Shown here one piece after another: positions 1-27,286 of a stretch of 64,000 nucleotides of DNA. How positions within the stretch are numbered: position 1 is the first letter of the stretch; every line of letters begins with the position of its first letter. Position numbers and translations under genes: made by a program. Source of the stretch: a virus; IMG/VR virus record IMGVR_UViG_3300025012_000042, positions 1 to 64,000 of that record; one strand, 5' to 3'. The notes under the pieces are model-generated. The model ran no database searches. It saw only the letters and a list, made by a program, of their open reading frames with translations, and had not been told where the DNA came from.

Positions 1-382
1 TATGTGGTTAGAGTATGGATAGAAGATAATCAAGTTAAATGTGCTTCTGAAGTTTGTACAGAAGATTCTTGCCCAAGATACAATGATTGTGAAAATGGTT
101 TATTAAGCGTTCATAAAGATTAATAAAACCAATAACCAAACTTATAGGATAAAGAGAGGAAAAATGAAATGGATTATTTTACTCAAGAAGACCATGATTG
201 GTTTCAAAGAGTTAAAGAACAACCAAGTGAATATCAAATAATAATTGATAACGATAGTATTTGGATAGAAACTGATGATGAAAATTTAGAAACAATATGT
301 GTTTATACCTTTAGTTCATATGGTTATGAATTTATTCATGCTTTATTAAAAGATATGGGTGTTAACGCCGATTTTTGCTAAT

Positions 383-408
383 ACATTGAAAGGATTAATT
401 TAATTGAG
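383..408. repeat. 10-6-10 palindromic junction site
   Basis: ACATTGAAAG-GATTAA-TTTAATTGAG between stop codon and RBS. Confidence 0.45.
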
Positions 409-1450
409 AGGAGGTTAAAATTAGTTGAATGAAGAACTTCTAGCAATTATTTTTTCAACGTGGGCTTTTATATCTTTCTTTTGCTATCTTTTTAATCTTA
501 AATGGATATTCGAACCAAGACATTATACAGTTGGTCATATATTTTTTGGTATTGTAACATTTCCTTTTACATTAATAGCAATCTTTATATACATTTTGAC
601 AAAACTTTTTCAATTATTTTGTTATGTATGTAAAATAAAAGGAGTTGAGAAAATAATGAAAATTAGAATTATCAAAGATAAGTCAGCAGAAAATAATAGT
701 ACAGTAAAAATAACTAAATTTATTGGTAAAGTATTTGATGCAAAACTATATGATTCAGGAACAGCGACAATAGATTTCGGTGAGGACTTAGGCGAGTTGC
801 ATGTTTATGATGGAGAATATGAAGTTGTAGAGGAGAATGAATAATGAGTAACAACAAAAAAGAAATATCAATTGACCGTGTAACAAATTGCCCAAGAAGA
901 AATTGCAAAAATACATATAAGTTAGATGCTTGGCACATGGTAAAAGATAATGCTCAAAAATTGTTTAAGAAATATTTATATGAACCAGAGCAACAGGAGG
1001 TAAAAAATGGATTGTGCAAAATGTGAAATAACTGATTTATGTAGGTTACGTCCTTATGCTATTGATGTCGAGCGCAAGATTAAGGATATAAATATGCTTG
1101 GTTTGCCATTTATTATTACAACTAAGTGTGAGTATTATAGAGATATGGTGTCAAAAGCTGAATTACAAAAACAATTAACTGAATTACAAAAAAGATTAGA
1201 AGTATAAATAATAAATAAATTTGTGTACTAATTAAAAAATGTTAGTTTAGAATTATGGTCTAGAAGGAAAGGTGATTTAATGACAGTAAATGATTTGCAT
1301 GAAGAACTTGGCAAACTAATGAAAAACAATCCTAGTACAATTAATGATGAAATTTATTACTTTAGTTACGATTGGAAGGTTGATGCTATTAATAGTTTAA
1401 GTATTGAATGGGATTTAGATGGGGAAGGCAGATACATAATATTAAAATAA

Positions 1451-1476
1451 TGTTTCAAAGTTAACATTTCAATTCA
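1451..1476. repeat. 10-6-10 palindromic junction site
   Basis: TGTTTCAAAG-TTAACA-TTTCAATTCA directly after a stop codon. Confidence 0.35.
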
Positions 1477-2050
1477 ATAAATAAAGGAGGATAAATTATG
1501 ACAATTTGTAGAGAATGTGAATTTTATTCAGAAGATGATTTAACAGGGTTATCTCCACAGGAAAAATTAGATCATGTTAGTGGTCATTGTATGGATTCTA
1601 ATAATCCAGATTTCAATGAATGGGCAAGAACATTTGGTAGAGGAATTACTAGAGAAGATTCATTCACAAGTCCTAAATGGTGTTCAAAAAGAGAAAATCC
1701 TGAGAGGACAGAGGAATATTATAGCGAAGATGAGATTAGGGAGTTTGTTGAGGAAGCAAAAAGATATCAGAGATTAACTGAATGTATAAGACATGCCAGA
1801 TTAAACAATATGCTTTGGTATTAATAGAAAGGATAAATAATTAATGATAATTGAATATTCATGGTCAGAAAGTGACCTTCTACATAAAAAGTGTTATAAA
1901 TGTGTTTGGTTGAAAATGAAAGATGATTGGTATGGAGTATGTGAATGCCAACAGAATAAAATTAGGTTTAGAAATAGACAAATTACTGATAAAAAGTGTA
2001 AATGTAAGTCTTATGATTAATGATAAAATAAAGAAAGAAGGAAAACAATA

Positions 2051-2341
2051 ATGAGAAAGATTTTATTAATTGGAGTATTAGGACTATGTACATTAGGATT
2101 GACAGGCTGCAATTTTACAGCAAAACATTTCGGAGGAACAATTAATATTGAACTGCCTAAAAACCAAAAATTAGTTGAAGCAACTTGGAAAGATGATTCT
2201 TTATGGTATTTGACAAAACCAATGAGAGTAGGGGATGTGGTCGAGACATATACTTTCCAAGAAGATAGTAATTTTGGTGCATTAGAAGGCAAGGTAATAT
2301 TTAAAGAGAGTGTGCAAGAAGGGGAATTAAAGGGTAAATAA
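2051..2341 (+). CDS. Putative lipoprotein
   Basis: N-terminus is MRK plus a hydrophobic stretch ending in lipobox LTGC. Confidence 0.7.
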   Translation: MRKILLIGVLGLCTLGLTGCNFTAKHFGGTINIELPKNQKLVEATWKDDSLWYLTKPMRVGDVVETYTFQEDSNFGALEGKVIFKESVQEGELKGK

Positions 2342-2344
2342 AAA

Positions 2345-2370
2345 CCAAATCAAAAGAACAACTTATCGGA
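2345..2370. repeat. 10-6-10 palindromic junction site
   Basis: CCAAATCAAA-AGAACA-ACTTATCGGA. Confidence 0.5.
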
Positions 2371-2591
2371 AAAAAAGAAAGGATGATTAAAATAAATAAA
2401 GATAATTTTTTGATTATTGGTGCATTATCAATGTTAATTAAAGAAGCAGGATTAGAAGAAAAAACAAACTTATTGATATCAGACGAAAAAGCTAATAAAT
2501 ATCTTGAATTACTTGATGAATATGGTAAAAATACAACTGTGGAAGAAAGGGAATCTCATTTAATAGATGTATTTTTAAGTATTTTTTCAAA

Positions 2592-2617
2592 GCTTTAAAA
2601 TTGCATATTTAATTGGT
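2592..2617. repeat. 10-6-10 palindromic junction site
   Basis: GCTTTAAAAT-TGCATA-TTTAATTGGT, with the stop codon in the left arm. Confidence 0.5.
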
Positions 2618-2807
2618 AGGGAGGTGAATTATATAATGAATGATAAAATATTGGTTGAATTAACCAAAGAAGAAATGAACATTGTCAAGAATGGAATGTT
2701 GCTAATTTTATCCCTTTCAAAAAGAAAACAAATTGATTTAAGAAATAATGCTAAAGATTTATATGAAGGTGTTTATAATAAATTTGATTTGTTGTACGAA
2801 AATAAAT

Positions 2808-2833
2808 GGCGTTAAGTCAAATATTCTAGAGTA
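2808..2833. repeat. 10-6-10 palindromic junction site
   Basis: GGCGTTAAGT-CAAATA-TTCTAGAGTA; left arm is 9/10 identical to the site at 6829. Confidence 0.45.
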
Positions 2834-2856
2834 AAAATAAAGGAGGATAAATAAAA

Positions 2857-3918
2857 TTGAACAATACAATATTTTTACCCAAAACAATTAAAGTAGGCTA
2901 TCAAACACGCAATGATACATATACAGGACAATTGGCATATGTTATATATTTTGATCAAAAAGGAGTTTTAAGAAAGGAGAAATCTTGGGAGAGTTGGCGT
3001 GATAAGAAAATTGAACCACAAGAATTTTCTAATGAACCAACTTCTGGATTTGTACTTAATAAGAAAGTAGGTGATTATTCAAGTGGTTGGGATCATCGAA
3101 AATCATATTGTAGAGTTTACGATGAACGAAACTTCGAATTTGAGATTACAATAGAAAATTTACTCTATATTCTTGAAAATGCTAATTCTATCAAAGGTAA
3201 GGGATTAGAAGGGTTATTTGTCTATGGTTGGTCAGGATCAGATTTACTATTGATTCCAGTAGATTCACCAGACTACATTGAATTAGCAAAATTGAATGAC
3301 TTAAGACATGAGAAGAAGAAATTCGATGGCAAGACTCTAATCTTAGGTGGGACATATAAATCTAATTCTAATAAAGAATTAATTTATTTGGGTAGATTTT
3401 ATGAAAATAATGATGACAGCAAAGAAACTAAAACATATTTCTTCTATGATAGAAAGTCAAGTTATAGGAAAATCAATTCTATAAAATCTTTATCAGGAAG
3501 TATAATTGATATAGTTGATGAAAATTGTGTTGAAGATTACTCTAATTTGATGGATGAATTATTAAAAGATAGTAGTTATTCTGCCAGAGAACCTAAAAAT
3601 GATGTATATTTAGATTATACTTTAGAAGAATTTAAGAAATTGCTAGAAAAGAATTCATATTGGCATAATAAGTGTTATGTAAAAATTGATAAAAAATATG
3701 TAAGATATTACATCGAAAGACAAAGAAATTATTATCATTATTCCTATTCTAATTATGACAAAAGAAATGAAACTTATAATGTTTATACTACTACCAAGGG
3801 GAGAAAAGATGAAATATTTATGAGAGAAGCATCTCCCGAAAATGTTTTCAATACAATTAAACCAAAATACTTAGTAACTTATAATGTTAATAAAGAATTA
3901 ATTAAGGAGTGGAAATAA
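2857..3918 (+). CDS. Phage-type hypothetical protein (353 aa)
   Basis: Long ORF with a strong RBS (AGGAGG) and TTG start; no catalytic motif recognised. Confidence 0.7.
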   Translation: MNNTIFLPKTIKVGYQTRNDTYTGQLAYVIYFDQKGVLRKEKSWESWRDKKIEPQEFSNEPTSGFVLNKKVGDYSSGWDHRKSYCRVYDERNFEFEITIENLLYILENANSIKGKGLEGLFVYGWSGSDLLLIPVDSPDYIELAKLNDLRHEKKKFDGKTLILGGTYKSNSNKELIYLGRFYENNDDSKETKTYFFYDRKSSYRKINSIKSLSGSIIDIVDENCVEDYSNLMDELLKDSSYSAREPKNDVYLDYTLEEFKKLLEKNSYWHNKCYVKIDKKYVRYYIERQRNYYHYSYSNYDKRNETYNVYTTTKGRKDEIFMREASPENVFNTIKPKYLVTYNVNKELIKEWK

Positions 3919-3920
3919 AA

Positions 3921-4325
3921 ATGGCAAATGAAACAAACGATTCTAAAATTATGGTATTAAAGAAACAAATTGAGGAAAAGAAAATTAAATTAGGTAAATC
4001 TCAAAAGTTTACACCAATCACTAATTGTTCAATCGAGTTAGATGGTGTAAGAACTAATATCCAAGTTCTCAATAAGGAGCAATTAACTTATCTATTAGTT
4101 AAACTTAACTCATATGCACTTTCTGCTAAAAGTTTAGAAATTGATTTTGTTATTTCTGGATATCATGTTGCAGATTGGATTACAGATATTAAATCTAAAC
4201 TTGATTTTATGAGTCGTAAAGAAGAAGAAAATAAACTTAAAATGATGGAGTCTAAGTTACATCAATTACTTTCTAATGAGAAGAAAGTAGAGCTTGAAAT
4301 TGATGAGATTATGAAGAATTTGTAA
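3921..4325 (+). CDS. Coiled-coil hypothetical protein, coupled to the upstream gene
   Basis: RBS AAGGAG precedes the ATG at 3921; sequence is helical and K/E-rich. Confidence 0.65.
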   Translation: MANETNDSKIMVLKKQIEEKKIKLGKSQKFTPITNCSIELDGVRTNIQVLNKEQLTYLLVKLNSYALSAKSLEIDFVISGYHVADWITDIKSKLDFMSRKEEENKLKMMESKLHQLLSNEKKVELEIDEIMKNL

Positions 4326-4356
4326 TAATTAATTGAAGGAGGGTGTTAAATAACTC

Positions 4357-4382
4357 TCCTTCGAAAGATACATTTGATGCCG
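4357..4382. repeat. 10-6-10 palindromic junction site
   Basis: TCCTTCGAAA-GATACA-TTTGATGCCG. Confidence 0.55.
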
Positions 4383-4964
4383 ACAAGAGGAGGTAGTAAA
4401 ATAGTGAAAATAAGAAAACCATCTCTAAAAGAAATATTAATTCTAATGATAGTTTATAACGGATGTAATGGCATAATTGGAGTAGTACAGGATAATTGTT
4501 TTTATGCAGGATGCAGTATTGGATTGGGATTAATATTGATTTATTTAAGGGGAAAGTTTTGTTAGAAAGGAGAAACAAAATGAGCGATCCAAATGATTTT
4601 CAATGTGATATTTGTGATAATACCTTAACTTCAGAATCTTGTTTTTGTGAAAATTGTAAAACGTGGTTATGTAATGGTTGTGCATTTGAAGATATCTTCA
4701 TGGAAATCTTTGAAGGTGCTGAAAAATTTTGTCAATATGTTGGTTATGATGATGAAGAATAATATGAATTGGTGTAAAAGAGATAAACGTGAATGCATAG
4801 GAGATATTTGCAGTATGCGTCCACAACCAAAAGAATTAGAAACTTATGAAGATTGCCCAGAATTTGCAATTAGAGGACAGAGGAGTAAATTGAATCTTTA
4901 TTATGATGATTTTGGATATGATTATGAAAAACTTGCTAAAGATTTAGAAATACTTATAAATAAA

Positions 4965-4990
4965 CCTAACAAATGAATATTCTAATTGGA
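4965..4990. repeat. 10-6-10 palindromic junction site
   Basis: CCTAACAAAT-GAATAT-TCTAATTGGA. Confidence 0.5.
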
Positions 4991-5154
4991 ATAGAAAGGA
5001 GTTTTAGTTGTGACCAGAGGGCAAGGCATAAGAAAGGCAATAATACTTATAAATAAATTAAAAGGTGTTGAAGGGATGTCAAAAGGTACAATATTAGAAC
5101 TTGATGAAATTATTGAGCATCTTGAATTTGTATCTCAATTCTATCTCTAATTAA

Positions 5155-5180
5155 CCCTCGAAATCTGACTATTAATAGGA
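5155..5180. repeat. 10-6-10 palindromic junction site
   Basis: CCCTCGAAAT-CTGACT-ATTAATAGGA. Confidence 0.55.
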
Positions 5181-5364
5181 TAATAAAAGGAGTGAAATTG
5201 AGATGGATTACACAATTATATCAATTAATAAATTATGTTTGAGTTTTAAAGACAATTGGAAAATTCAATATAAACTTCCAACTGTGGATATTTGGCTTGA
5301 TTATGATATATATGAAAGCACTTTGGTAAGTTTTCTAGCCCTTTGTGGACTTAATGCAGAATGG

Positions 5365-5390
5365 AGATATAAATACTAGATTTCATGCTA
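5365..5390. repeat. 10-6-10 palindromic junction site
   Basis: AGATATAAAT-ACTAGA-TTTCATGCTA. Confidence 0.4.
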
Positions 5391-6828
5391 TCGAAAGGAG
5401 TGATAATAATTAATATTAATTCTGAATGGTTTAAAACATATAGAATTTGGGCAACAAATAAAATAACAAAACAAAGACAAAAATTAACTATATATTGGAT
5501 TACGGATTGGGATGAGGTATTAGAAGTTTTACAGAGAAGAAATATTAATAATGATACATATGATATAAAAATTAAAAAGACATATGGAATAGGGAATGGT
5601 TGTAAAGGTAGACTTACACAAGTAGATAAAATTAAAAAAGAAATGATGGAAAGGATAGGTAAATAAATGGAAAAATACTTTATTGTAACCAAGCAATCAA
5701 AATTATATGAGGAATATTTTACTTATAAAACAAACGACGAAAAAATCAGAAAGATTTCTAAAGACTTTATGGATAAAAATGAAATAGAAGCAACTAAATA
5801 TTATTGTACAAATTCTGCATTTTACATAATCCCAACAGAAAAAGACTTAGAAAAATTCAGCAAACTGTTATGTAAACCTGTAGATAATAATCTTATGGCG
5901 TTTAAGAAAACATCTAAAATTAATAAGGCATGGATTACTTTATTAGATGAGCAAAATATTATTATTGGACATAAACCATTTATTCAATTTTACTTTGATA
6001 GAGGTTATGGTAAAACTAGAAATAGATTATTTAATATTGATGATGCAGTATATTGTTCATTTGAAGGAGAATTTGAAGTCAATACCCCAGAGGGGTTTAT
6101 TGAAATCAAAGCAAGTGAATTTTGGAAAATTGTTGAGGATTATGAAGGAGGAGACAATAATGAAAATAACTAAATACAATGGTAAAGGTGCTGTATGGTA
6201 CAAACACAAAGAATTAGATAAAGAAGGAAAAATGATTTCATTATCTAATACAGGTAGAGTCGAACCTGATTATTTTAAAATAATTAGAAGGGAATTTAGT
6301 GACATAGATCCATATAGAAGTGAGCCAGAAGAAGTTGAAGATTTCATTTATTATCTCAATAAAGAAGTAGATTTAGGGGAAAATGCTTATGATTTTGATA
6401 TGCCTTTACCTGATAGTTCAAAGGAATATTTCTTAATATTCAATGATAAAATTTGGCTTTACATAATTATATCAGACGAATATATGGGTAGTGGTGATTC
6501 AGAAACGTATGCTCATATTAATAGTATTTTAATTCCAGAAGGCACAGATATTGAAGAAGTTAGAGAAGTTAAGACATGGTTAATTAATGGTGGATTTAAG
6601 ATGTTGAGATAGGGTGTGATGAAATGGCAAGAGTATTAAACGTTCATAAAAGATATGAAATAATTTATTCTCAATGCGAAAAACAACCTTTACTTAATCA
6701 AGAAGTGGTTATTGAAGAATGGGATGAAACTGGCACAACTATTATTCATAATATCAAAATTATTGAAATTGTAAATATATTGCCATACAAAATAGGTGAT
6801 GAATGGATGTTTAAATATACTATCATAG

Positions 6829-6854
6829 GGCGTTAAATCTAATCATTTAAAGGA
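6829..6854. repeat. 10-6-10 palindromic junction site
   Basis: GGCGTTAAAT-CTAATC-ATTTAAAGGA. Confidence 0.55.
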
Positions 6855-7110
6855 TAAAAAGGAGGAGAAGTTAATGAAGAGTCATGATTTAAGAACTGGA
6901 TATAAATTACCAAATAACTATGAGATTAGATTAGGCGATAGACTTGTTTCTAAAGCATACAGACCAGTAATTGTAAAATACTATAGGGAATTGCAAAGAT
7001 ATTTTGTTGAAACTGATGACGATTCTAAATTTCAATTTTCGTTGCAACAATATTTAGAGACATTTGGGAATACATCCGAATGGAGAGGAAGTATTATAAC
7101 TGAGTAATAT

Positions 7111-7136
7111 CCCAGCAATTTAACCATTTATTTGGT
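7111..7136. repeat. 10-6-10 palindromic junction site
   Basis: CCCAGCAATT-TAACCA-TTTATTTGGT; right arm is identical to the site at 27261. Confidence 0.55.
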
Positions 7137-7350
7137 TAGAGAAAGGAGTTGAGAAAATGATTTGTAAATCATGCAGAGGCAAATCTATAGCAAGAGGTAT
7201 AAAATTAATCAACTGTTTTAGATGTGGGAAAAAGACAACAGTTAATTATCTTTATCAAAATTATTGTGAAGACTGTTCAAACGCATTACAAAAATGTCAA
7301 CGTTGCGGTGAGAAGACCGCCACAGAAATATCAGGAGAGGAAGTAAAAGA

Positions 7351-7887: not shown

Positions 7888-7894
7888 AAACGAA

Positions 7895-7920
7895 CCAAAT
7901 AAAAAACTGATTTTAATCTA
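7895..7920. repeat. 10-6-10 palindromic junction site
   Basis: CCAAATAAAA-AACTGA-TTTTAATCTA; left arm is identical to the site at 18260. Confidence 0.5.
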
Positions 7921-7946
7921 TAATTTAAAGAAAGAAGGTAATCAAA

Positions 7947-8246: not shown

Positions 8247-8272
8247 TCATATGAAAAAAGAAATTCGAAGGA
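8247..8272. repeat. 10-6-10 palindromic junction site
   Basis: TCATATGAAA-AAAGAA-ATTCGAAGGA. Confidence 0.55.
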
Positions 8273-9122: not shown

Positions 9123-10049
9123 TCCAAGGAAAGAGGAGATTGAGGAGTGTATTAATAATGATCAGAAAAACTTCATATTTATGTGAAATGTGTAGGAAGT
9201 ATTTTGATGAACCAAACATTGTTAAAGAAAATCATTGTGAATATAATGTATGTCCTTACTGCATTAGCAATCTAAAAGGAATCAAACCAAACAAAACATA
9301 TGGTGGTATTTATTATGCAGATGGTATTTATAATTTTACTGTCTGTGAGCATAGGGATGGATCTGGTAAGAAAGCTGATTTAAGTAGATATTATGGAAAT
9401 GAAAATTTGCTAAAAGTTATTATTGAGGAATTAGAGGTTCAATTATTTACATATGAATTATGGTATGGTGTTTTATAGAAAGGAGTTAAAATATGAGTTA
9501 TGAATGGGTACATAAAATACTTAAAGATATTGACGATATAGACTTTAAAAATTGCAAAAAGGATTGTTACGGAACAAATTGTAAATATATCGAAGAGTGT
9601 AGTTGGTATCATTATAAACATAGAGAAGAATTTGCATTTAATGGTTTAATGGAAGAGTTAAAGAAATCAAAATGCTATTTCGAAGGAGGAATAAAATGAA
9701 ACACAACGACAAATCATATAACTATGCCAGAGAAGAAATGTTAGAAAATGGTTTTGTTTTACTAAATGACGATGGCGAATATCTTATTGGATATAAAGCA
9801 CATTTAAATAGTAGACAAGTAGAATTAACAAAATTAGATTCTTCTGTAGATGAAAAATTAGTCCGAATTACTTTAACAGAAGAAGAATTGAAAGAATTAG
9901 CCAACTCATTAAAACAGCTTAAATCACAAACTTTAATCTAACAAATCGATAAATAAATACTTAACTTAATATCATAATTAATTATATAATCATATTAAGT
10001 CAAGTAACAAAACACACAAATAAAAATAAAAAGGAGATGTTATAAAAAC

Positions 10050-11694: not shown

Positions 11695-14264
11695 TACCAT
11701 ATTTAAGAACAACAGATAAAAATACTATAAATTGCAATGCTGATTTAGTAATTTTAGATTCAAGCAATCCAATATTAATATCTCTATGTGATTTACATAT
11801 CAAGAACAGAAAAATATGCTCAGATTTAATCTCTCATTCTTATTCAATTACTTTAAGAGACAGAGAAGATATATTCTTTGAGCAAACATTATACGGTAGA
11901 GAAAATCATTATAGATATAAATCTGACAGAATGGCTGATGATTTAACTCATACAATAATATATAATACTAAAATAAATGATTATTGTATCAATTGGAATA
12001 ATGAAGATAAGAATGAGATTATCACAAAGTATTTAAGGAATATTCATTATTTACCTGTGACTGCTGAAATTGTAAAAATGATTTTAGACAAAGAAGATAT
12101 TGAAAATGCTAAACATAAATATAGTAGTAATTATGGATGTGTTAGTGAGTGTACAGTTTATACAAATAATCCTATGTATCTAGATTTAAAGGTTTATAAA
12201 ATAAATATTACTTGGTTTAAACAAAATTTAAATGCTTTGACTTTGGTTGGATATAAGGAAGATTTTGATTGGAGTAAAATTGAGGATGTTCAGGATTATA
12301 TATTTGCTTTTTTGAATCCAATTAAAGAAAGATTGAAGAAAAATGTTAGAGTTTTGTTTGATCCTAAGAGAGTGAATCAGAAAATGTTTGAAGGTAAAAT
12401 GAAACCATTCGATGGTCAGGTGCCAATTATTCAATCTGCATTAGAGGTTTTGAAGAGAAGTAGGTTCGTTTATTTGGCAGCCGAAATGGGGGTTGGGAAG
12501 TCAACATGTGCAACTAAAGCAAATCATTGTCATTTGTATCCTAACAAACAAAACTACGTCACATTAATTGTTGCTCCTGCAATTACATTAACTCAATGGA
12601 AAGATGAAATTAAGAATAGCATAGGAGATAAAGTAAATATTCATATTATCAAAAAGACATCTGAATTTATCAATATTTACAATAAGAATCAATTGCATTT
12701 CAATAAACCAACATATTTTCTAGTAGGTAAAGAAACGTTCAAACTTGATGCAAAAAGAATATCTGGTGTAAATATTAAGACTATGGAAATAAAGCACAAA
12801 AAAGAAGTACAAAGTGGTGGTTATTATAGTTATTCAACAATTAAAGAAGTTAAAGAAAAAATAACTATAGCATGTTGCCCTGACTGTGGAAGACCTTTAC
12901 AAAATGAGTTAAGGAAAAAAGAAGATGTTTTCTTTACTGAAAAGGATTTTCAAGGAAATCCTAAGAAAAGTAATTATAAATGTTCAAATTGTAATACCGT
13001 ATTGTGGCAAAGTACATATGATAAAACAAAGAAAAGTAGTTTAATAAGATTTATTAAAACCAAGAATATTCATTTTGATAGTGTAATCGTGGATGAAGTG
13101 CATGAGAGCAATACAGTTGGGACAATAATTTCTAGTGCAACTAGGACATTATTTAATTATGCTAAAAAGATAATTTTACTTAGCGGAACCAATAATTCAG
13201 GATATTCTTCGAGTTTATTTAACCTATTCCTTGGATTATTACCCAATAAACTTAAAGAAAATGATGTTATGGAAATAGAGAAATTTATTAAAGCTTACGG
13301 AACATTAATGGCGGTAAACAAAAAGAAAGATGGTGAATACTATCGTTCAGGCCGAAGCGAGATTAAGGATAGCGATTTCAAAGAAATTGAGGGAATACAT
13401 AGCCTAGTATATACTAAATATTTAGTAGAGAACTATATCTTTGCCACATTAGACGATCTAGGAAAGGATTTGCCGGACTTAAACGAGTATTACATACCAA
13501 TACATCAAACTCAAGAAATGGAACGCTTAGAGAGCAATCTGTGGCATGAAATTAAGTCTGCAAATGCCTTCAATGCTAAAATGTATGAAGATTCAATTGT
13601 AAAACATTATATTAATAATCCATTTAAATGGGATTCAATTCCTATTAATAGAGGAGAAGAAAGTTATAAAGAAGTTCAGCCGAAATGTATTAATGATTGT
13701 ATTTTACCAAAGGAACAAGTATTGTTAGATATTGTTAAGCAAGAGTTATCTGAAAATAGAAAAGTTTGTATTTATGTGGATTTTAATAATGGTGGCGAAT
13801 ATATGAAAGGAATTACTATCGCAAAGAGAATTGAAAATTTACTTTCTAAAAATAATATTAAAACATTCACATTAAAATCAACTGTGCCGAATTATGAAAG
13901 AAAAGAATTGTTAGAGAAAAAGAAAGATAGTTTTCAAGTATTAATAACCAATTGTAAATTGATGCAAGTTGGCATTTCCCTTGTGTTTCTTCCAACCTAT
14001 ATAAACTACATGCCTAGTTATCAAGTTAATATTGTTAGTCAGTCAAATAGAAGGGGTTATAGAGTTATTAGTGTATTAGAAAATAGAATTTATCACTTGT
14101 ATTATGAAAATTCATGCGAGAATGGGATTATTAAAAGATTCCAACGTAAGATGGCTGAGAGTAAGGCCATTGTTGGTCAATTTGATGTTTGTTTGGAAGA
14201 TGATGATTCGATTAGAACTGCCAGTAAGTTAAGTAAAAAAATTAATGATAGTGCTACTAAATGA
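11691..14264 (+). CDS. SF2 (SNF2-like) helicase with zinc-ribbon insertion
   Basis: Walker A AAEMGVGKS, Walker B DEVH, motif III LSGT, motif VI-like QSNRRGYR and a CPDC...CSNC insertion. Overlaps the MTase stop (ATGA). Confidence 0.85.
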   Translation: MIPYLRTTDKNTINCNADLVILDSSNPILISLCDLHIKNRKICSDLISHSYSITLRDREDIFFEQTLYGRENHYRYKSDRMADDLTHTIIYNTKINDYCINWNNEDKNEIITKYLRNIHYLPVTAEIVKMILDKEDIENAKHKYSSNYGCVSECTVYTNNPMYLDLKVYKINITWFKQNLNALTLVGYKEDFDWSKIEDVQDYIFAFLNPIKERLKKNVRVLFDPKRVNQKMFEGKMKPFDGQVPIIQSALEVLKRSRFVYLAAEMGVGKSTCATKANHCHLYPNKQNYVTLIVAPAITLTQWKDEIKNSIGDKVNIHIIKKTSEFINIYNKNQLHFNKPTYFLVGKETFKLDAKRISGVNIKTMEIKHKKEVQSGGYYSYSTIKEVKEKITIACCPDCGRPLQNELRKKEDVFFTEKDFQGNPKKSNYKCSNCNTVLWQSTYDKTKKSSLIRFIKTKNIHFDSVIVDEVHESNTVGTIISSATRTLFNYAKKIILLSGTNNSGYSSSLFNLFLGLLPNKLKENDVMEIEKFIKAYGTLMAVNKKKDGEYYRSGRSEIKDSDFKEIEGIHSLVYTKYLVENYIFATLDDLGKDLPDLNEYYIPIHQTQEMERLESNLWHEIKSANAFNAKMYEDSIVKHYINNPFKWDSIPINRGEESYKEVQPKCINDCILPKEQVLLDIVKQELSENRKVCIYVDFNNGGEYMKGITIAKRIENLLSKNNIKTFTLKSTVPNYERKELLEKKKDSFQVLITNCKLMQVGISLVFLPTYINYMPSYQVNIVSQSNRRGYRVISVLENRIYHLYYENSCENGIIKRFQRKMAESKAIVGQFDVCLEDDDSIRTASKLSKKINDSATK
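14163..14249 (+). repeat. Copy 1 of a duplicated 29-codon helicase C-terminal segment
   Basis: Encodes KAIVGQFDVCLEDDDSIRTASKLSKKIND and matches 15574-15660. Confidence 0.9.
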
Positions 14265-14316: not shown

Positions 14317-15672
14317 ATGTTATTAACCAAAAATGTATTAATGAAATGGAGTTATTCAAATAAAAAACGGTATGAAAGTAATGGTTATATATTTACTAAA
14401 TGGAAAGATGAATTTAATGTTAAAGTAGAAGATTTACCAGATGGATCAAATGCGTTAGTTGAAGTAAAATGTGATGGTTGTGGGGAAATACTAACTAATT
14501 TTAGATGGGTAGATTATAAAAAACAAATTAAAGAAGATGGTAAATATTATTGTCATAAATGTGTTATGAAATTATATGGAGGAGAAAATGCCAGATTAGC
14601 AAGATTAAAAAATAGTATATCCTTTAAACAATGGTGTATAGATAATAATAGACAAGATATTCTTGACAGATGGGATTATGAATTAAATCAATTAACTCCA
14701 GATGAAATTAATTATTCCACAAACAAAAAATATTATTTTAAATGTCCTAGAGGAATGCACAAAAGTGAATTAAAAAGTATAGTTAATTTTACAATTAATG
14801 GGCAAGAGGGTTCAATAAAATGTAATCAATGTAATTCATTTGCCCAATGGGGCATAGATAAACATGGTGAAGACTTTTTAGAAAAATATTGGGATTATAA
14901 ATTAAATATATTAAATCCTTGGAATATTGATCATGGAAGTAATAAAAAAGTATGGATTAAATGCCAAGTAAAAGATTATCATGAAAGTTATAAAGTTTCA
15001 GCATACGATTTTTACATTAATAAAAGATGTTCATTTTGTAATACCAACAGTGGCAAAATACATAAATTAGATAGTGTTGGATTTGTACATCCTGAAACGT
15101 TAAGTGTATGGAGCAATAAAAATAATAAATCGCCATATGAATATGCTCCTCATAGCGATAAAGAAGTTTATTGGAAATGTGAACATGGTATACATAGTGA
15201 TTACAAAAGAAATATTGACTGTTCATTAAGATATAATTTTCATTGCCCAGAATGTCGATATTCTAAAGGTGAAAAAATAATAAGTGAATATCTTATGAGA
15301 AGCAATATTTTCTATATTCCACAAAAAACATTTGAAGGACTTGTAGGGTTAGGTGGTGGATTGTTGTCTTATGACCATTATTTACCTAAATATAATTTAT
15401 TAATTGAGTTCCAAGGTAATTATCATGATGGAACAGTCAGCAATCAAACAGAAGAAGAGTTTGAGTATCAAATAGAGCACGATAGGCGTAAAAAGGAATA
15501 TGCAGAATTAAATGGATATAATTTCTTAGAAATATGGTATTGTGATATTAATAATATTGAAGAAATATTAAATAAAGCAATCGAGGGTAAATTTAATGTG
15601 TGTTTAGAGAATGACGATTCAATTAGAATTGCTAGTAAATTAGGGAAAAAGATTAGTGAAGGAGTTATATAA
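14317..15672 (+). CDS. Zinc-ribbon-repeat endonuclease, putative free-standing homing endonuclease
   Basis: Repeated W-x-C...H...C-x2-C zinc-ribbon units and a C-terminal Vsr/PD-(D/E)XK-like motif YDHYLPKYNLLIEFQGNYH...HDRRKKEYA. Confidence 0.75.
   Translation: MLLTKNVLMKWSYSNKKRYESNGYIFTKWKDEFNVKVEDLPDGSNALVEVKCDGCGEILTNFRWVDYKKQIKEDGKYYCHKCVMKLYGGENARLARLKNSISFKQWCIDNNRQDILDRWDYELNQLTPDEINYSTNKKYYFKCPRGMHKSELKSIVNFTINGQEGSIKCNQCNSFAQWGIDKHGEDFLEKYWDYKLNILNPWNIDHGSNKKVWIKCQVKDYHESYKVSAYDFYINKRCSFCNTNSGKIHKLDSVGFVHPETLSVWSNKNNKSPYEYAPHSDKEVYWKCEHGIHSDYKRNIDCSLRYNFHCPECRYSKGEKIISEYLMRSNIFYIPQKTFEGLVGLGGGLLSYDHYLPKYNLLIEFQGNYHDGTVSNQTEEEFEYQIEHDRRKKEYAELNGYNFLEIWYCDINNIEEILNKAIEGKFNVCLENDDSIRIASKLGKKISEGVI
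15574..15660 (+). repeat. Copy 2 of the helicase C-terminal segment, fused in frame to the endonuclease
   Basis: Encodes KAIEGKFNVCLENDDSIRIASKLGKKISE; 21 of 29 residues are identical to copy 1. Confidence 0.9.
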
Positions 15673-15687: not shown

Positions 15688-15717
15688 TTGACATTGGTAT
15701 TGTGTGCATGTTATAAT
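15688..15717 (+). promoter_or_regulatory. SigA-type promoter
   Basis: TTGACA-N18-TATAAT with extended TG. Confidence 0.75.
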
Positions 15718-15739: not shown

Positions 15740-15765
15740 TCCGTCGAAATATTTCTTTCGAAGGT
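15740..15765. repeat. 10-6-10 palindromic junction site
   Basis: TCCGTCGAAA-TATTTC-TTTCGAAGGT; 8/10 arm symmetry; first site after the promoter at 15688. Confidence 0.65.
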
Positions 15766-17020: not shown

Positions 17021-17046
17021 TCCTAAGAAAAGTCGATTTCCAAGGA
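17021..17046. repeat. 10-6-10 palindromic junction site
   Basis: TCCTAAGAAA-AGTCGA-TTTCCAAGGA; 8/10 arm symmetry. Confidence 0.65.
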
Positions 17047-17836: not shown

Positions 17837-17862
17837 GCATATGAAAAATTAGTTTCGATGTA
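17837..17862. repeat. 10-6-10 palindromic junction site
   Basis: GCATATGAAA-AATTAG-TTTCGATGTA directly after a stop codon. Confidence 0.55.
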
Positions 17863-18259: not shown

Positions 18260-18285
18260 CCAAATAAAAATTCCATTTCGTAGTA
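18260..18285. repeat. 10-6-10 palindromic junction site
   Basis: CCAAATAAAA-ATTCCA-TTTCGTAGTA directly after a stop codon. Confidence 0.55.
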
Positions 18286-20034: not shown

Positions 20035-20060
20035 TACAAACAAATGACTCTTTCATTTGA
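20035..20060. repeat. 10-6-10 palindromic junction site
   Basis: TACAAACAAA-TGACTC-TTTCATTTGA directly after a stop codon. Confidence 0.45.
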
Positions 20061-20081
20061 TAAATAGAAAGGAATATTTAA

Positions 20082-20537: not shown

Positions 20538-21074
20538 ATAAGAAAGGAAGTATAAATATGAAAAAATTAGAATTTGGTTATAAGTGTAAAGATATTGTTA
20601 CAGGGTTTGAAGGGATTTTAAAAAGCAGAGGTGTATTTATTACGGGATGTGACAGAGTTGAATTGGTCAATGCCAGTGAAGAAAAATGGTTTGATATTCC
20701 AACGCTTAAAATCATTGATGATGGAGTCTATCACGATTTACAAGAATCAGGATGTAATAATTATGATGATATTAATGAATCATTATATGATTTCGGCATA
20801 CTAGCAAAAGATAAAATTACTGAATATGAAGGAAAAATAATTGCAAAATCAATTAGTATTACTGGAGATATCTCATATGGATTATCGCCAAAATTTGCAA
20901 AGGAAAATAGCAATAATGATGGGACTTGGTTTGATGAAGGTAGGCTTGAGATTGTAAGCGATAAAAAAGATGAGATTAAAGTAAATGAGAAAAGAACTGG
21001 TGGAGCAGTACCAAGTTTGAAGTGTAGGTAATTTTATTTCATAAGTTAATAATTTAGAAAGAAGGAATTATATA

Positions 21075-22067
21075 ATGAGTCATTTTACTGTAGCCGTTTT
21101 TACCAATGGGAATAAAACTGTTGATGAATTATTAGCACCTTATCAAGAAAACAATATGGATGATTGCCCTAAAGAGTATTTAGAATTTAATGATGAAACC
21201 GAAGAATACTTGGAACAATATGAAAATGATGGAACAGATATGGTTAAAAATCTTGATGGTGAATTAGTATATAAGTGGGATGTTCCAGAAGATTTGAGAA
21301 AAGATATGGTATTCGTAAAACATAAAGAAAAATATAATACATTTGACGAATTCATGAGGGAATATGCTGATTATGAGAAAGATGAAAAGACGGATAAATA
21401 TGGTTATTGGGAAAATCCTAATGCTAAATGGGATTGGTATCAAGAAGGTGGAAGATGGTCAGGACAGTTAAAATTGAAACCCATATTACGTCTAACAAGT
21501 AATGATGCATTTAATACACTCGGATTTAATCAAAATGAATTTTTAAATTTTGTTAATTGGTATAAAACAGATAAAGATAAATTTAATTCAATTATTGAAA
21601 AATACAAAGGATTAAAACAGAAAATAACTAGTGAAGTGGAAATATACATAGAAATGATGAATAGTGAAATAAAACATGTAAATTCTGCAAAGATTAAAGA
21701 TGTTGATTTCTCTCTAGATATTAAAGAATATAATAAAGCAATTAGATTTTGGGAATTAATTGTAGACGGATGTGAACCTAAAAATAAAGAAGAGGAAGAT
21801 ATAATTGGGTGGAGTTTTTATAAACCTGAATACTACAGCAAAAGATATAAAAACAAAGAGCAGTATGCAAAATTAACTGCTGAATTTGGTACATACGCTG
21901 TAATTACTCCTGATGGTAAATGGCATTCAAAAGGTGATATGGGTTGGTTTGGTTGTAGTTCTGAATCTGATGAAGAAGCTAATAGTTGGAGCGTAGGTTT
22001 TAAGGAAAAGTTTATTGATAATGCTGATCCAGAATGGACTTTAACTGTCGTAGATTGTCATATTTAA
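21075..22067 (+). CDS. Conserved phage-type hypothetical protein (NPNAKWDWY...GGRW)
   Basis: MSHFTVAV start and VVDCHI end with the internal NPNAKWDWY motif. Confidence 0.65.
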   Translation: MSHFTVAVFTNGNKTVDELLAPYQENNMDDCPKEYLEFNDETEEYLEQYENDGTDMVKNLDGELVYKWDVPEDLRKDMVFVKHKEKYNTFDEFMREYADYEKDEKTDKYGYWENPNAKWDWYQEGGRWSGQLKLKPILRLTSNDAFNTLGFNQNEFLNFVNWYKTDKDKFNSIIEKYKGLKQKITSEVEIYIEMMNSEIKHVNSAKIKDVDFSLDIKEYNKAIRFWELIVDGCEPKNKEEEDIIGWSFYKPEYYSKRYKNKEQYAKLTAEFGTYAVITPDGKWHSKGDMGWFGCSSESDEEANSWSVGFKEKFIDNADPEWTLTVVDCHI

Positions 22068-23319
22068 AAATTAAAAGATAATTATTAATTTTGATTTGGA
22101 AAGGAGGAAATAATTATATTTGAAATTGGCGATTACATAAATGATAGAATGGAAGAATTAAGTAAAGGTCAAGAATGCTCACCAGTTGGAGATTATATAG
22201 AAACTATTGCAACGGAAGTAAGAGATAAATTTGATGTTCAATGTAGTACATGTCATTGTGGTGGTTTTGATAGTCCAGGTTATGAAATTACATGCTATGC
22301 CATGGCATGGATTAATAAAAATGGAGAACTAGAAATGCTAGATTTTCAAGAAGAATCTTATTAATTCAATTGTAGTGTTTAACGGTATTAAGAAAGGAAG
22401 ATTATATTAATGACAAGTCAAGAACAAAAAACCATAGATAAATTATATCAATTAATGTCTGATATTCAAAAAGAGAATAATGAGTTTAGAAAACAAGTAA
22501 ATGATCTTACAACTAAAATTAATACAAAAGTAGAAACTAAACATCTTCCTATTACTTTAGAACAAGACATCTTATCAGTAGCACAACAATCAATTCAAAA
22601 AGCAATTCAAGAATCTATGACTAAATATGATAGTCCTTTAATTAAACTTGTTTCTTCAGTAATTAATGAGCATTCAACAGAGTTAAGACAAATTATTTCA
22701 GATAGTTTTAATGAAGTAATCAAGAAAGAAGACTTCAAACAATCAATTATTGCAGGTTTTTCACATAAAGTTGCTAGGAGTATTATCAGTAATAATGATG
22801 GATTATTTGATAAAGTGAGCAATGAATTAAAACAAGATGCTGTATTTAAATCTAAAATGGCATTAGCTGTAGCAAATGTTGTAAATGAGTGTTTAGAAGG
22901 AAGGAGTAAAATAAATTGAGTTCATTCAGAAAAGAATTTAATACATATACTTTGCAAGAATTAAAAGATAATGAATCTGGTTTTACTCTTAAAGAATCAT
23001 TTGTCCATGAAGATGAAGTTAAAAGTATACTTGATTCAATAGAAAATGGCGTAAATATTATCAAAGAAGGATTGGAGAGTATTAAAGGATTAAGCGAAAT
23101 TGATGACATTTATACTATAGTAAAAGTGTTATCTGATAAATTATATTAATTTTGATTGAGGGAGGATTATTATGAATACCAACAAACTAATCGTTAAACT
23201 TTTAATCCATTGTCTTAGATTATTGATGGACATTAAAAGCGAACAAACTGGCTCTAATTATTCTTTTGAAAAAGAAAGTGAAGCAATTAGAGAAGCTAGA
23301 AAATATATAGGTGATTGAA

Positions 23320-23345
23320 TCCAATGAAAATAATATTATTGAGTC
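23320..23345. repeat. 10-6-10 palindromic junction site
   Basis: TCCAATGAAA-ATAATA-TTATTGAGTC. Confidence 0.4.
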
Positions 23346-24210
23346 ATTTGAAAGGTGGTGATAAAATGAAAGACGAAGTTATTCAAGCACTAGCATTCTT
23401 AAAGTCATGTGTTTTGTGCGGTGAAAAACTAAGTGAATCTGAAGAGCAAGAAATTAATGAATTAATTATTAGATATAAAAATACATAAACAATAATTATT
23501 TAGATTGATATTGTTAAAATACAAATTAAAGGGAGAGATTGATATGTTTAAGAAAAAGCAATTAACACCTTCTATGATGATTCAAAAGGCAATAGTGGTT
23601 GTAGAAAATGCAGTATCTATGTTTAACCTTGCGGTTATGGAAATTGATAAGGCAAATGAAATATTGAAAGAATCTAAAGATCAGAGTCAAGTTAAAATTG
23701 ATTCATTGGAACAAGAATTGTTAAATACAAAACAAATAAAAGAAGATGCGGAATTAAAAATTAATGCACATTTAGAATTAAGAGAAAAACTAAGTCAATT
23801 TACTCAATAAGTTAATCTTTAGTGATTGTGGAATAATCAAATATTAAATTAAATCAAAAATAAATTTGAAATAAGAAAGAGGTAATAAATAATGTTTAAT
23901 AAATTAATAGAAATGGTCATGTCAAATCCTAAATTAGCAAAACCAATGGTGAGTGAATTGGTGGATACATATAAGCCACTATTGTATGGAGTTGCTGAAG
24001 AGTTATTTAACATCTATAAAGATTATGCTAATAATACTGAATATTTTAACACTAATGCAACTGCTAGAAAGAATCAATATGATGCTTATATTAATATTGG
24101 TTTTAGTGCAGAGCAATCTATGAATTTATTGTTGAATGATGCAAAGAAATTAGAAGATAGATTGAATAAATTATCTTCTGGAGCAAAATCAAAGAAATAA
24201 TTTGAGATAT

Positions 24211-24228
24211 GGGGAGTTAATTCTCCCC
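24211..24228 (+). terminator. Stem-loop, possible terminator
   Basis: GGGGAG-TTAATT-CTCCCC. Confidence 0.5.
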
Positions 24229-25858
24229 TTGTAAATAAAAAGGAGGGTGTTAAAAATAGATATAAATAAAACCATAGAAAAACTTGAAGAATATAAGGCA
24301 TATAAACATAACATAGACCCATTTAATATTGAAATGAACAGATCGATGAGCGATGTATATCCTTATGAAAAATTATATAGTATTTTTAAACTTGGTCAGG
24401 CTCATATGTTATCAACATTCAAAAATCACATATATCAATATATTTGCAACGATGACAAAGATTATATTGATGCTATTGTTAAACAATCAAAAGAAGATAT
24501 AGAAATGAAAGGTTTCTTAGATATCTTGATTAAGAAAGAAGGATTATAATAATGGATATAAATTTATTTTCATTAATTGTAAAAAAGTTAGGTGATTCAG
24601 ATTTAGATGATTTTTCATACACAAAAGACGGTAAAATTTATGGGTTTAAAGAGGTTGGTGATGATAGTTGGGATGATCAAGGAAAATATCAGTATAAATA
24701 TGAAGAAGGTCAGTTAATGGAAATGGATGAAAAATATGTAGAAGTTCAATTATTTCCGTTCGGAGTAACACGTTCCGTGTCAAGAAGTGGTTCATATTTT
24801 TCAGATTACTATTATGATAAAGACGAATACGAAATGTTTGAAATTACATCAATTGAGATTCCAGAGGTCATTATCCCTGCTCATATGGAAGATAAATGGA
24901 ATAAGTTGAAAATTGATTTAAATAACATTGTTGACCAAGAGGAGGAAAATAAAAAGAGAATTGAAGCTGAAAGAGTAAAATTAGAAGAAGATGCTAAAGC
25001 AGAAAAGGATAGGTTGACTAAACTTTATCCTATGAATAATAATGATATAATTAAATTAGTAAATAAGAGTTTAAAAAAGAAAGGGTTAGAAAAATTTACG
25101 TTACAAGATATGCGAAAAGAGTATTTTGATATTGTAGTAAAAAAGAAACTTGAAAGTCAGGAATGGATTGATTATCATAGGAGTTTGCAAGAATCACAAA
25201 AGGAGGATAATTAATAAATGAAAGAATCAATAACCCTAGACAGTGGAAAATATGAAGTTGTTTTAGATCAATCTGATGGTAAATTTAATTTCCATGCTTT
25301 GAGATATGGAGAAGAGTGGAGGGACTTAACAGGAGATAATTTAGTTCTTGCTATGTTTAATAAAATTCAGGATTTAGAAGATAAATTGTTAGTTTATGAA
25401 GTTAAATAGATTAAGAAAGGAATAAAATTAAATGAATTTAGGCAAAGAAGAGTTGGTTAACGCATTAAGGAAAGATGGTTTAAATATAGGGAAATTAGCT
25501 AATGATGGTGACGGTGATGCTCAAGAGATTATGAAATGTTATAAAATGTGGCACGATTGCCCTGGAGATAATATGTCTTTTATATTATGCGAAAAAGCTT
25601 ATCAAAAATGGAAGAGTAAAATCTAATAAATTTTAAAGAAAGGTGAGAATAAATATGGACTTAAAGAAAGCTCAAGCGACAAAAGGTGGAGTCATACATA
25701 TCGCATATCTAAAATCTAATATGAGTTTATGTTTACAATATGTTGGTGAAGATGTTCAAAATATTCAAGATAGGAATATTACTTGTAAAAGATGTTTAAA
25801 AGCATATGCTAAAATTGAAGGGAATGAAGAGATTTTATAAATATAAAAATAAAGTTGC

Positions 25859-25887
25859 TTGACATACGATTAGTAAAATGTTATACT
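25859..25887 (+). promoter_or_regulatory. SigA-type promoter
   Basis: TTGACA-N17-TATACT with extended TG. Confidence 0.75.
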
Positions 25888-27111
25888 TATTAAGTAGAGA
25901 AATACATATTACATAGAAACGAGGTGAAAGAAATGAAAATCAAAATACTTAACAATGATTTTATTGAAGATATCCCTGTAGGAGCATTAGTTGAAGCAAA
26001 GTATTTTAAAGATATATCATCAGAAGAAAAGGTAAAATGGGCAAATGTTTTAACTAGTGAAGAAGAGTCTCAAACATTATGGGATGATCTTGATGTATTT
26101 GTGCAAAATAGCAAGGGTGAGTGGTTATGGATGTATGAGGACGATATTGAGATTGTGGAAGAATAGATTAGAAAGATGGTGAAAATTTGAATAAAGATAA
26201 TAATTGGTAAATAAATTAAGGAGGTGATAATCATAAGAAAAGTAAGATTCCTTAAAGATTTTAATTACTTCAAGAAAGATACTTATAGAGTTATTATGGA
26301 AGAAACTGCATTGCATTATCGTATTCAAGTTAATTTAGATAGTGATGAGTTGTATTGGTTGCATAAGGAAGATTGTGGAGATTTGTTTATTGTGGTTGAG
26401 AGGAGTTAAGAAATTGAAAAGAGAAGATATTACGATTGGATTAAGGGTAATTCCTCATTCAAAAAGTTATTGTGGTAATTTAGATGGCAGTGTCGATTGG
26501 AAGTGTGCACAGAGTAAAAACCAACCATATTTATTCGTATCAGAGATTTGTTCTCATTATATTGTTTTAGAATCCACAGAAAGATCAAATAAGGGTGATT
26601 TTTTCTTACCAGAAGATTTTGAACCATACATAGAAGACAATAAAAAGAATGAAGAAATTAACAATGAAAGTAGGGATATTAAAATGAAAAAATCAGATTT
26701 AAATAGTTCTATGCTATTCAAAATGCGTGATGGAGATTTATGTGCTTTATTGGATGATGTAGATAATGGAAAAATGTTTTGCAATAAAGAAGATATTCAA
26801 TTAGGGTATAGTTCTTATTGCGTATCAATAAATGATTATGATGAGGAATTGTCTAGCGAAGGAGACGATTATGACATTGTAGCAATTAAGCAACTAGATA
26901 GTTGTGTGAGAGTTGTATGTGATGTTTTAGATGAGAATGAACTTGAAGAATGGGATTGGGTTGAGGAAGTTGAGAAAGAAGTAGAAGAACAAAAAATCGA
27001 AAATGTTGCCCAAAATATTACAATTAATATTACCATTGATTCAAAAATGGATATTAATGAGTTAATGAGAGAATTGTCTTCAAAAATGAAGAATATAGGC
27101 AATTATTAGAT

Positions 27112-27137
27112 CCTCAAGAAATTTTCATTTTATAGGA
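27112..27137. repeat. 10-6-10 palindromic junction site
   Basis: CCTCAAGAAA-TTTTCA-TTTTATAGGA. Confidence 0.6.
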
Positions 27138-27238
27138 TTATGCTTAAAATGACCATAAACTCAAATTTTCAATAAAATCACTAAAATAGCCCTGTAACCG
27201 TTGCTACATAAGGGTTTGTGGTCATTAAATAGGCATAA
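27138..27238 (+). ncRNA. Candidate structured non-coding element between two palindromic junction sites
   Basis: TTATGCTT..AATGACCATAAAC pairs with GTTTGTGGTCATT..AGGCATAA; the mismatches are G-U compatible on the + strand; no ORF. Confidence 0.45.
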
Positions 27239-27260
27239 ATAATTATGTTATATATGGCAT

Positions 27261-27286
27261 CCGATAGAAGTGGAATTTTATTTGGT
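27261..27286. repeat. 10-6-10 palindromic junction site
   Basis: CCGATAGAAG-TGGAAT-TTTATTTGGT. Confidence 0.55.

Follow-up and report, generated by a model that had tools for sequence, protein, structure and literature searches.

In the heterospecific lox and FRT sites used with Cre and Flp for cassette exchange, inverted arms bind the protein and only sites with identical spacers recombine; a set of different spacers thus allows segments to be swapped one slot at a time, with nothing deleted or reordered. The dif and pdif sites of the Xer system have an arm-6 bp-arm layout, while integron attC sites (57–141 bp) recombine as folded single strands via IntI at attI, and the cassette order changes. 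Stoperators, which occur in cluster A mycobacteriophages, measure 13 bp and follow the direction of transcription; we know of no position-specific address in them. They are asymmetric (PMC9283540), and a temperate phage genome carries dozens of these protein-binding sites, spread over its short intergenic regions (PMC9283540, PMC6550527). In Acinetobacter plasmids, short dif/pdif sites (XerC/XerD) act as exchange points and stand on either side of small accessory modules, which vary from one related replicon to another (PMC5790767, PMC13141974). In T4-type phages, the promoter-early stem-loop (PeSL) combines a terminator stem-loop with an early promoter, and homologous recombination occurs between similar copies (PMC2839356, PMC4122927). 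Phage SPbeta encodes MrpR, a repressor with a recombinase fold that has lost catalysis and binds a 15-bp motif, SPBRE (for SPbeta repeated element), at ten promoters, where its peaks in chromatin affinity precipitation sequencing (ChAP-seq) are found (PMC10516654). Here we describe a 26-bp junction site that recurs between small genes in positions 1 to 64,000 (the window) of IMG/VR virus record IMGVR_UViG_3300025012_000042, a 112,820-bp contig with 29% G+C and a completeness rating of 63%. Its six-base centre differs from site to site within a genome and recurs unchanged, in the same order, in related phages.

The initial annotation of the window had proposed about 25 degenerate palindromic sites with 10-bp arms and a 6-bp core at the junctions of accessory genes. 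All twelve positions cited for them hold the sequences quoted, and the pattern tested was YC-N4-RAAW-N6-TTT-N4-GGW. It occurs six times in the whole window (0.40 expected), or 34 times if up to one mismatch is allowed (10.2 expected). When the + strand intergenic segments (gene calls were made with our own heuristic) were each shuffled separately, exact matches were found at 4 loci versus 0.04 in the shuffles, and matches with up to one mismatch at 11 versus 0.63. Given that this pattern had been fitted to the window, a fair test calls for unseen DNA, in this case 20 related IMG/VR loci around the helicase (72–87% protein identity); their intergenic segments contain it at 42 loci, against 3.5 expected. 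The motif is thus enriched over a shuffled background, 12- to 17-fold in the intergenic spacers of the window and equally so in the 20 relatives, and both the segment shuffles and the unseen relatives rule out chance or base composition as its source. Iterative refinement led to the motif T-M-M-n-W-T-R-AAA-N6-TTT-Y-A-W-n-K-K-A, the matrix of which scores at least 10 bits in 34% of the 555 unique spacers of the clade and in 0.4% of shuffles; the copies have in common only ∼13 bits of consensus. This consensus is dyad-symmetric at each position (T1/A26, M2-3/K24-25, W5/W22, T6/A21, R7/Y20 and AAA/TTT, around the 6-bp centre). An unbiased screen of the clade for 4-mer dyads (TAAA-N8-TTTA, 37 vs 9.1 expected; AAAA-N6-TTTT, 28 vs 10.5; GAAA-N6-TTTC, 7 vs 1.1) yielded the same inner motif, T-R-AAA-N6-TTT-Y-A. 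A search for enriched k-mers in the spacers returned the ribosome-binding site only.

The palindromy is a property of the consensus only: generic 10-6-10 palindromes are at chance level (78 vs 78), which discards generic palindromy as the feature that recurs. The recurrent element itself is real, although its number is nearer 17–20 in the window than the ∼25 first proposed, and the 'shared arms' reported between distant sites are consensus matches rather than repeats. Between 1 and 27.6 kb, 14 of the 37 spacers of at least 26 nt hold a site, and a complete genome holds ∼60–70. Confinement to small-gene regions was borne out, since no site lies in the replisome or ribonucleotide reductase blocks and three lie in a second small-gene block at 47.8–48.7 kb. 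Among the 162 gene-flanked sites of four genomes, 105 start within 10 nt of a stop codon and 95 end 15–30 nt before the next start. In a distant branch with 25% G+C (G004, L012 and L014), similar small-gene arrays are present, but neither the motif nor any other enriched dyad was found in their spacers.

When the sites were grouped by their 6-bp centre, identical centres were seen to recur in relatives between non-homologous genes. Their order is fixed: TATCGA, GGATTA, TTATGG, AGAACA, GATACA, TCTGAC, CGAATC, TTAACC, AACTGA, AAAGAA, CCACTG, ATGCTA, CACAAT and TCCAAA, followed, past the methyltransferase and helicase, by TATTTC, AGTCGA, ATTCCA, ..., TTTTCA and GTGGAA. Across 48 sequence pairs, 381 orderings were concordant and none discordant. 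As a control, a hexamer window was slid across the site and exact identity counted between genomes. The count peaked only at the centre (171 pairs vs 14.5 expected, a ratio of 11.8), with ratios of 1.0–1.7 in the arms, and 5-of-6 matches at the centre were not enriched (197 vs 219). Centres of different genomes are either identical or unrelated. Identical centres are found in 143 of the site pairs in which neither side has a homologous neighbour, where we estimate ∼13 by chance (match rate of 0.28 per base), and the arms and flanks of these 143 pairs are near background identity; sites with the same centre share only 12 nt (AAA-centre-TTT). In G000, G001 and G003 each centre occurs just once, and palindromic centres are absent, which agrees with the earlier remark that the cores all differ. 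Fifteen sites of the window have their centre in common with relatives. The cargo between two given centres varies; the TTATGG-AGAACA interval, for instance, holds three types in five genomes and spans 292–1033 bp. The identities of left and right arms are unlinked (rho 0.08), and there is a weak link between either arm and the flank next to it (rho 0.18 and 0.16). A 'master' locus with all centres, such as a guide array, was also sought; no convincing cluster was found, AT-rich 8-mers being too common to judge.

Mosaicism is strong among the relatives. Breaks in synteny with another genome occur at 37% of spacers shorter than 10 nt and at 76% of those of 10–25 nt; at spacers of at least 26 nt the figure is 83% without a recognised site and 91% with one. 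Judged by gene order, the modules are runs of tightly coupled genes and the joints are the long spacers. The sites do stand at the borders of gene modules that have truly been exchanged among relatives, as blastn blocks, synteny and the differing cargo between same centres all indicate; of the further claim that breakpoints coincide with sites, what is left is at most a modest excess, long spacers that lack a site being broken nearly as often. Recent one-sided junctions, i.e. same-centre sites with one side conserved and the other unrelated, numbered 11. In seven of these the switch falls at site positions 6–10 or 20–22, within 3 nt of AAA-centre-TTT.

A dyad-symmetric sequence motif that shows no folding signal points to a dimeric protein on double-stranded DNA, and this is what the element looks like. 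We infer from its placement, the all-or-none conservation and order of its centres and the differing cargo between them that crossover happens at the centre. The sites would be double-stranded docking sites, bound by the dimer at the inverted half-sites T-M-M-n-W-T-R-AAA, and the 6-bp centre would serve as a position-specific address. With related phages in one cell, crossover would be restricted to sites whose centres match and would take place at the centre or next to it, with exchange of everything on one side. As a genome has each centre once and the centres keep a single order, modules would be swapped slot for slot, without deletion, inversion or reordering; a crossover that keeps the centre while either side is exchanged would also account for exact, position-specific centres. 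We assign a probability of roughly 0.45 to this reading, in which identical centres are needed and the partners are co-infecting relatives. The initial annotation had instead envisaged promoterless modules inserted, excised or shuffled within a genome, as in an integron, at sites of the tyrosine-recombinase type. The arm-6 bp-arm geometry of such sites holds (dyad consensus, 6-bp centre). Shuffling within the genome is not supported, given the strictly conserved order, the uniqueness of each centre and the lack of any attC-like hairpin signal; each centre being unique, a recombinase needing matching centres could not join two sites of one genome. The data fit exchange between genomes at matching sites better than integron-like shuffling.

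Several observations weigh against slot-for-slot exchange at the centres. Long spacers with no recognised site are broken almost as frequently as those with one, and of the 579 ends of blastn alignments (at least 88% identity) only 26 lie within a recognised site, so that exchange is not limited to the sites. Four of the 11 recent junctions switch outside the centre region: in two the switch is at the site's left edge, and in the other two it is 5–10 nt beyond the site. The linkage of arms to flanks is weak, and the site pairs are non-independent because many contigs stem from few metagenomes. As the initial annotation had noted for the window, no recombinase is encoded, and this extends to the whole of the 63%-complete contig, which has no tyrosine or serine recombinase and no PF00589 match. 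The sites are equally dense in genome G002 (92% complete), which lacks an ortholog of the small recombinase found in two relatives (see below), and G004 has an MrpR-like protein but no sites. A very similar pattern would, finally, arise from purifying selection on each centre while the free arm positions drift neutrally.

Alternatively, the sites could be operators. They would then bind the phage's own regulator, most plausibly an MrpR-family repressor with a recombinase fold, which would block transcription in early operons in the lysogenic or plasmid state, much as the stoperators of cluster A mycobacteriophages do, and the link to gene exchange would be incidental. A consensus-level DNA dyad without a hairpin signal suits such an array, as does the location of sites within long operons that have few promoters; one is found 23 nt downstream of the -10 hexamer of a strong promoter and another ∼35 nt upstream of a promoter. 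The four larger relatives all code for an MrpR-family protein beside a DndB-like gene, and there are precedents both for a catalytically dead, recombinase-fold repressor acting on a repeated element at ten promoters of SPbeta (PMC10516654) and for many repressor sites that halt elongation across a phage genome (PMC9283540). An operator, however, gives no reason for a centre that is exactly kept, unique per genome and ordered while the arms drift. The peaks of SPbeta MrpR, moreover, are at the ten SPBRE promoters, which bear a different 15-bp motif (PMC10516654); the annotated palindrome upstream of yopM reads TTGTAATGCATTACAA, and the MrpR-like gene of G004 is not accompanied by sites. We consider an operator array unlikely, if far from negligible. 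More doubtful is that sites kept for some regulatory reason are passive linkers, short patches of identity at which the homologous recombination proteins of the phage (a Sak4-like annealase and an exonuclease) join unrelated modules, as has been proposed for the PeSLs of T4-type phages. The phage does code for a Sak4-like annealing protein (28711–29811) and an exonuclease (32830–33936), mosaicism is pervasive with breaks mainly at spacers of at least 26 nt whether or not a site is recognised, and PeSLs are small conserved motifs of T4-like phages where unrelated genes are exchanged (PMC2839356, PMC4122927). Nevertheless, the 12 nt shared by same-centre sites, whose arms are at background identity, make a very short tract for exchange by annealing; within a genome, copies share only a degenerate consensus, unlike PeSLs; and the all-or-none behaviour of the centre is left unexplained.

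The least probable alternative, to which we give very little credit, is an RNA element, with the sites forming mRNA hairpins that act in processing or stability, or in controlling translation of the gene that follows. The frequent end of sites 15–30 nt before a start codon is in its favour, as are a few spacers with real hairpins (7108, 20035, 24201, 29812 and 42318). Yet a position after the stop codon and before the ribosome-binding site is where any element sits in a compact genome, and the few well-folding spacers owe this to ordinary G+C-rich hairpins elsewhere than at the sites. Spacers fold no better than their shuffles (mean z −0.24), and the best sites reach just −2.8 to −6.1 kcal/mol, values that shuffles attain as well. 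No covariation was detected at the free arm positions: positions 5 and 22 both hold A or T, with pairing not above expectation (43 vs 45.3), and only pairs 1-26 and 4-23 reach z values of 2.5–2.8, in sequences that are related. With no Rfam match either, an RNA hairpin, an intrinsic terminator and a structured RNA family were all rejected. A sigma-70 promoter was likewise discarded, as the left half of the site resembles TTGAAA but the sequence logo shows no -10 element at the right distance downstream.

If exchange at matching centres is the correct reading, three candidates may be considered for the protein responsible, the identity of which we infer from related, more complete genomes; these do contain proteins of the tyrosine-recombinase fold. 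The first candidate is a small Xer-like tyrosine recombinase. Genomes G001 (100% complete) and G003 encode orthologous proteins of 225 and 189 aa, respectively, whose nearest solved structures are Xer proteins. Co-occurrence of this gene with the sites fails for G002; its absence from eight other related records carries little weight, these being 22–49% complete. The copy in G001 (locus L021, G001:104562-108047) has an N-terminal zinc-ribbon of ∼35 aa that is absent from the G003 copy, and its gene adjoins one for a GNAT acetyltransferase. The second candidate is the MrpR-family protein, of recombinase fold, encoded in each of G001–G004. It matches both Pfam MrpR domains (PF22822 and PF22823), and its gene directly follows a DndB-like gene, like yopQ-yopR of SPbeta, at the loci examined (L058, G003:70189-74007; L059; L060; L061); the best match among solved structures is entry 9rd5, titled only 'Core-binding (CB) domain-containing protein'. 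The third possibility is that the bound protein would merely stall replication, whereupon the nascent strand would switch template at the 12-nt identity AAA-centre-TTT. SPbeta YopP was discarded, as it has no homolog in G000–G004 and no real similarity to the small recombinase.

The coordinates of the sites and promoters of the window are collected in Table 1. Only three near-consensus sigma-70 promoters were found on the + strand between 1 and 28 kb, most genes having none of their own, which upholds the proposal that promoterless genes are read from a few promoters; the sites are mostly inside operons, not at promoters.

Table 1. Junction sites and promoters of the window, with scores from the refined matrix and the relatives in which each centre recurs
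Feature	Position	Strand	Centre	Score (bits)	Remarks
Junction site	124..149	.	AACCAA	11.8	begins at stop codon, ends 19 nt before next start
Junction site	382..407	.	GGATTA	14.3	centre also in G001, L010 with unrelated arms
Junction site	2345..2370	.	AGAACA	16.2	centre in G001, G002, L008, L009, L010, L018; arms and flanks unrelated
Junction site	4357..4382	.	GATACA	17.1	centre in G001, L008, L018; just past G+C-rich hairpin 4333-4360
Junction site, frame of initial annotation	5155..5180	.	TCTGAC		AAA-TCTGAC-T one base off register; one mismatch to initial pattern; not among window matrix hits, so a weaker member; TCTGAC recurs in L002/G001, L004, L009, L010 between unrelated genes
Junction site	6829..6854	.	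CTAATC	13.3	overlaps stop codon; centre also in G003
Junction site	7110..7135	.	TTAACC	17.8	centre in G002, G003, L004, L005; G003 homology starts at site position 11
Junction site	7895..7920	.	AACTGA	17.1	centre in G003, L005, L009, L018; blastn blocks of L020 stop, and of L004 start, within 6 nt of centre
Junction site	8247..8272	.	AAAGAA	14.3	centre in G001, L004, L008, L018; L018 homology block stops at 8265
Site overlapping gene 3′ end	9662..9687	.	ATGCTA	12.3	ends 8 nt before next start; centre in G003, L005, L009
Junction site	15740..15765	.	TATTTC	17.5	exact pattern match; downstream of promoter 15688-15717; centre in G001, L001, L005, L007, L010
Junction site	17021..17046	.	AGTCGA	19.0	exact pattern match; centre in G003, L001, L007, L010, L018
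Junction site	17837..17862	.	AATTAG	14.1	centre also in L001
Junction site	18260..18285	.	ATTCCA	18.8	centre in G003, L005, L008, L018
Junction site	20035..20060	.	TGACTC	17.8	also a real 7-bp hairpin, spacer fold z = −2.4; centre in no relative
Junction site	27112..27137	.	TTTTCA	14.9	exact pattern match; centre in G001, L005
Junction site	27260..27285	.	GTGGAA	12.7	upstream of promoter 27319-27347; centre in G001, L004, L005; L004 homology starts at site
Junction site, second small-gene block	47811..47836	.		10.5	
Junction site, second small-gene block	48441..48466	.		16.0	
Junction site, second small-gene block	48655..48680	.		20.7	exact pattern match; top score of the window
Sigma-70-type promoter	15688..15717	+			12/12 consensus, upstream TG; serves downstream promoterless genes; conserved in L001, L007
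Sigma-70-type promoter	25859..25887	+			11/12 consensus with TG
Sigma-70-type promoter	27319..27347	+			12/12 consensus with TG; ahead of replication module

The contig is a large SPbeta-like phage. The window, where the + strand carries the genes up to 54.9 kb, codes for a methyltransferase, an SNF2 helicase and ribonucleotide reductase, and for a replication module (27523–38132) made up of the Sak4-like annealase, a small open reading frame (ORF), DnaB, a primase, the exonuclease, an HNH endonuclease insert and DnaE. The module follows the gene order yorG to yorL of Bacillus phage SPbeta, with the HNH endonuclease inserted before DnaE, and the DnaE protein shares 40–46% identity with its counterparts in Geobacillus E3, Lactococcus 949 and Clostridium c-st. 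Nucleotide searches against named phages and plasmids gave no match to the window, and a tRNA scan found none. The accessory genes scattered over 1–27 kb are 75–93% identical to relatives in nucleotide sequence, while the replisome genes (27.5–38 kb) give no nucleotide alignment of at least 400 nt to G001–G004; on these alignments, therefore, the 'core' genes of the window are more diverged from those of relatives, or have been replaced, compared with the accessory ones.

Other features of the window were recorded. ORF 14317-15672 encodes a 451-aa zinc-finger protein (DUF4379) absent from relatives; the helicase 3′ end of the relatives aligns to the two stretches that flank it (14164–14248 and 15575–15659); to judge from this, the ORF was apparently inserted with duplication of ∼85 bp at the 3′ end of the helicase gene. 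Another DUF4379 protein is encoded at 53411–54946, and a 477-aa ORF (42876–44309) has a weak match, below the Pfam cut-off, to OrfB_IS605 (TnpB-like). Some spacers carry an additional element of ∼60 nt between stop codon and site, with a conserved loop (CGTTGCTAYnnAAGGGTT) and a stem that varies on both sides (e.g. CCGCAAA/TTCGCGG vs CCTGAAA/TTTCAGG). It is present at ∼27138–27259 of the window, a gene-free slot between sites 27112 and 27260, and also at ∼2060–2112 of L004 and at ∼1047–1106 and 17051–17173 of L005; 10 of the 162 sites begin 60–69 nt past the stop. This spacer element has no Rfam match and may be a structured RNA.

In SPbeta itself, a strict form of the motif, TAAAA-N6-TTTTA, occurs 15 times in a 50-kb stretch (1.1 expected), mostly at gene junctions; the sites of the window are more degenerate, with outer TCC/GGA positions added. 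The annotated SPbeta palindrome upstream of yopM, one of the ten MrpR targets, does not read TAAAA-N6-TTTTA, and the latter is not described in the paper on MrpR and SPBRE (PMC10516654); no description of the junction palindrome or its conserved centres was found in the searchable literature. It is conceivable, and we would place the odds somewhat below even, that SPbeta-like phages carry a natural cassette-exchange system in which dozens of protein-bound sites use distinct 6-bp centres as numbered addresses. It has long been asked how large phages can trade their small early genes, probably including many for host takeover or anti-defence, and still maintain a functional order of genes. Addressed joints, if they are what the sites prove to be, would give this trade a defined mechanism and defined sequences, and would be the physical counterpart of 'linker' sequences, whose existence has long been postulated in modular phage evolution; the strict motif of SPbeta makes a standard laboratory system, Bacillus subtilis, available for their study. 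Should the sites be operators, they would make up a large array for a recombinase-fold repressor and extend MrpR-type regulation.

Each of the known systems shares some features with the junction sites. Integrons likewise have promoterless small genes read from a shared promoter and a site at each junction, but the present sites are 26 bp long, show no excess folding or covariation and keep a fixed order, and no IntI or other PF00589 match was found in the contig, which is incomplete; an attC identity was therefore discarded. Stoperators are also numerous intergenic sites across a temperate phage genome, and differ in being asymmetric and without a variable centre. SPBRE is, like the junction site, a repeated palindromic intergenic element of an SPbeta-type phage, its protein has a tyrosine-recombinase fold, and the relatives of the window code for the same family; it is nonetheless another element, of 15 bp and at ten promoters, and MrpR represses without catalysis. 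The sites were not taken for SPBRE, since TTGTAATGCATTACAA is unlike the motif and they lie mostly within operons. PeSLs too are small conserved motifs that border variable small early genes of large phages and act as exchange points between otherwise unrelated sequences. The junction sites, however, have neither a promoter (no -10 element follows them) nor a stable stem, and copies within a genome are dissimilar, sharing just the ∼13-bit consensus and each having its own centre, so they are not PeSLs. With dif/pdif modules they have in common short sites around variable small modules and the arm-6 bp-arm layout; pdif sites differ in their distinct XerC and XerD arms, in the shuffling of their modules and in the use of host Xer enzymes, whereas the junction sites have symmetric arms, another consensus and a fixed order, and belong to a phage. 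The heterospecific lox and FRT sets are engineered, while the junction sites are natural, number ∼60–70 per complete genome and have degenerate 10-bp arms around the 6-bp centre; with centres that are unique within a genome, identical between genomes and fixed in order, they would nevertheless resemble such a set.

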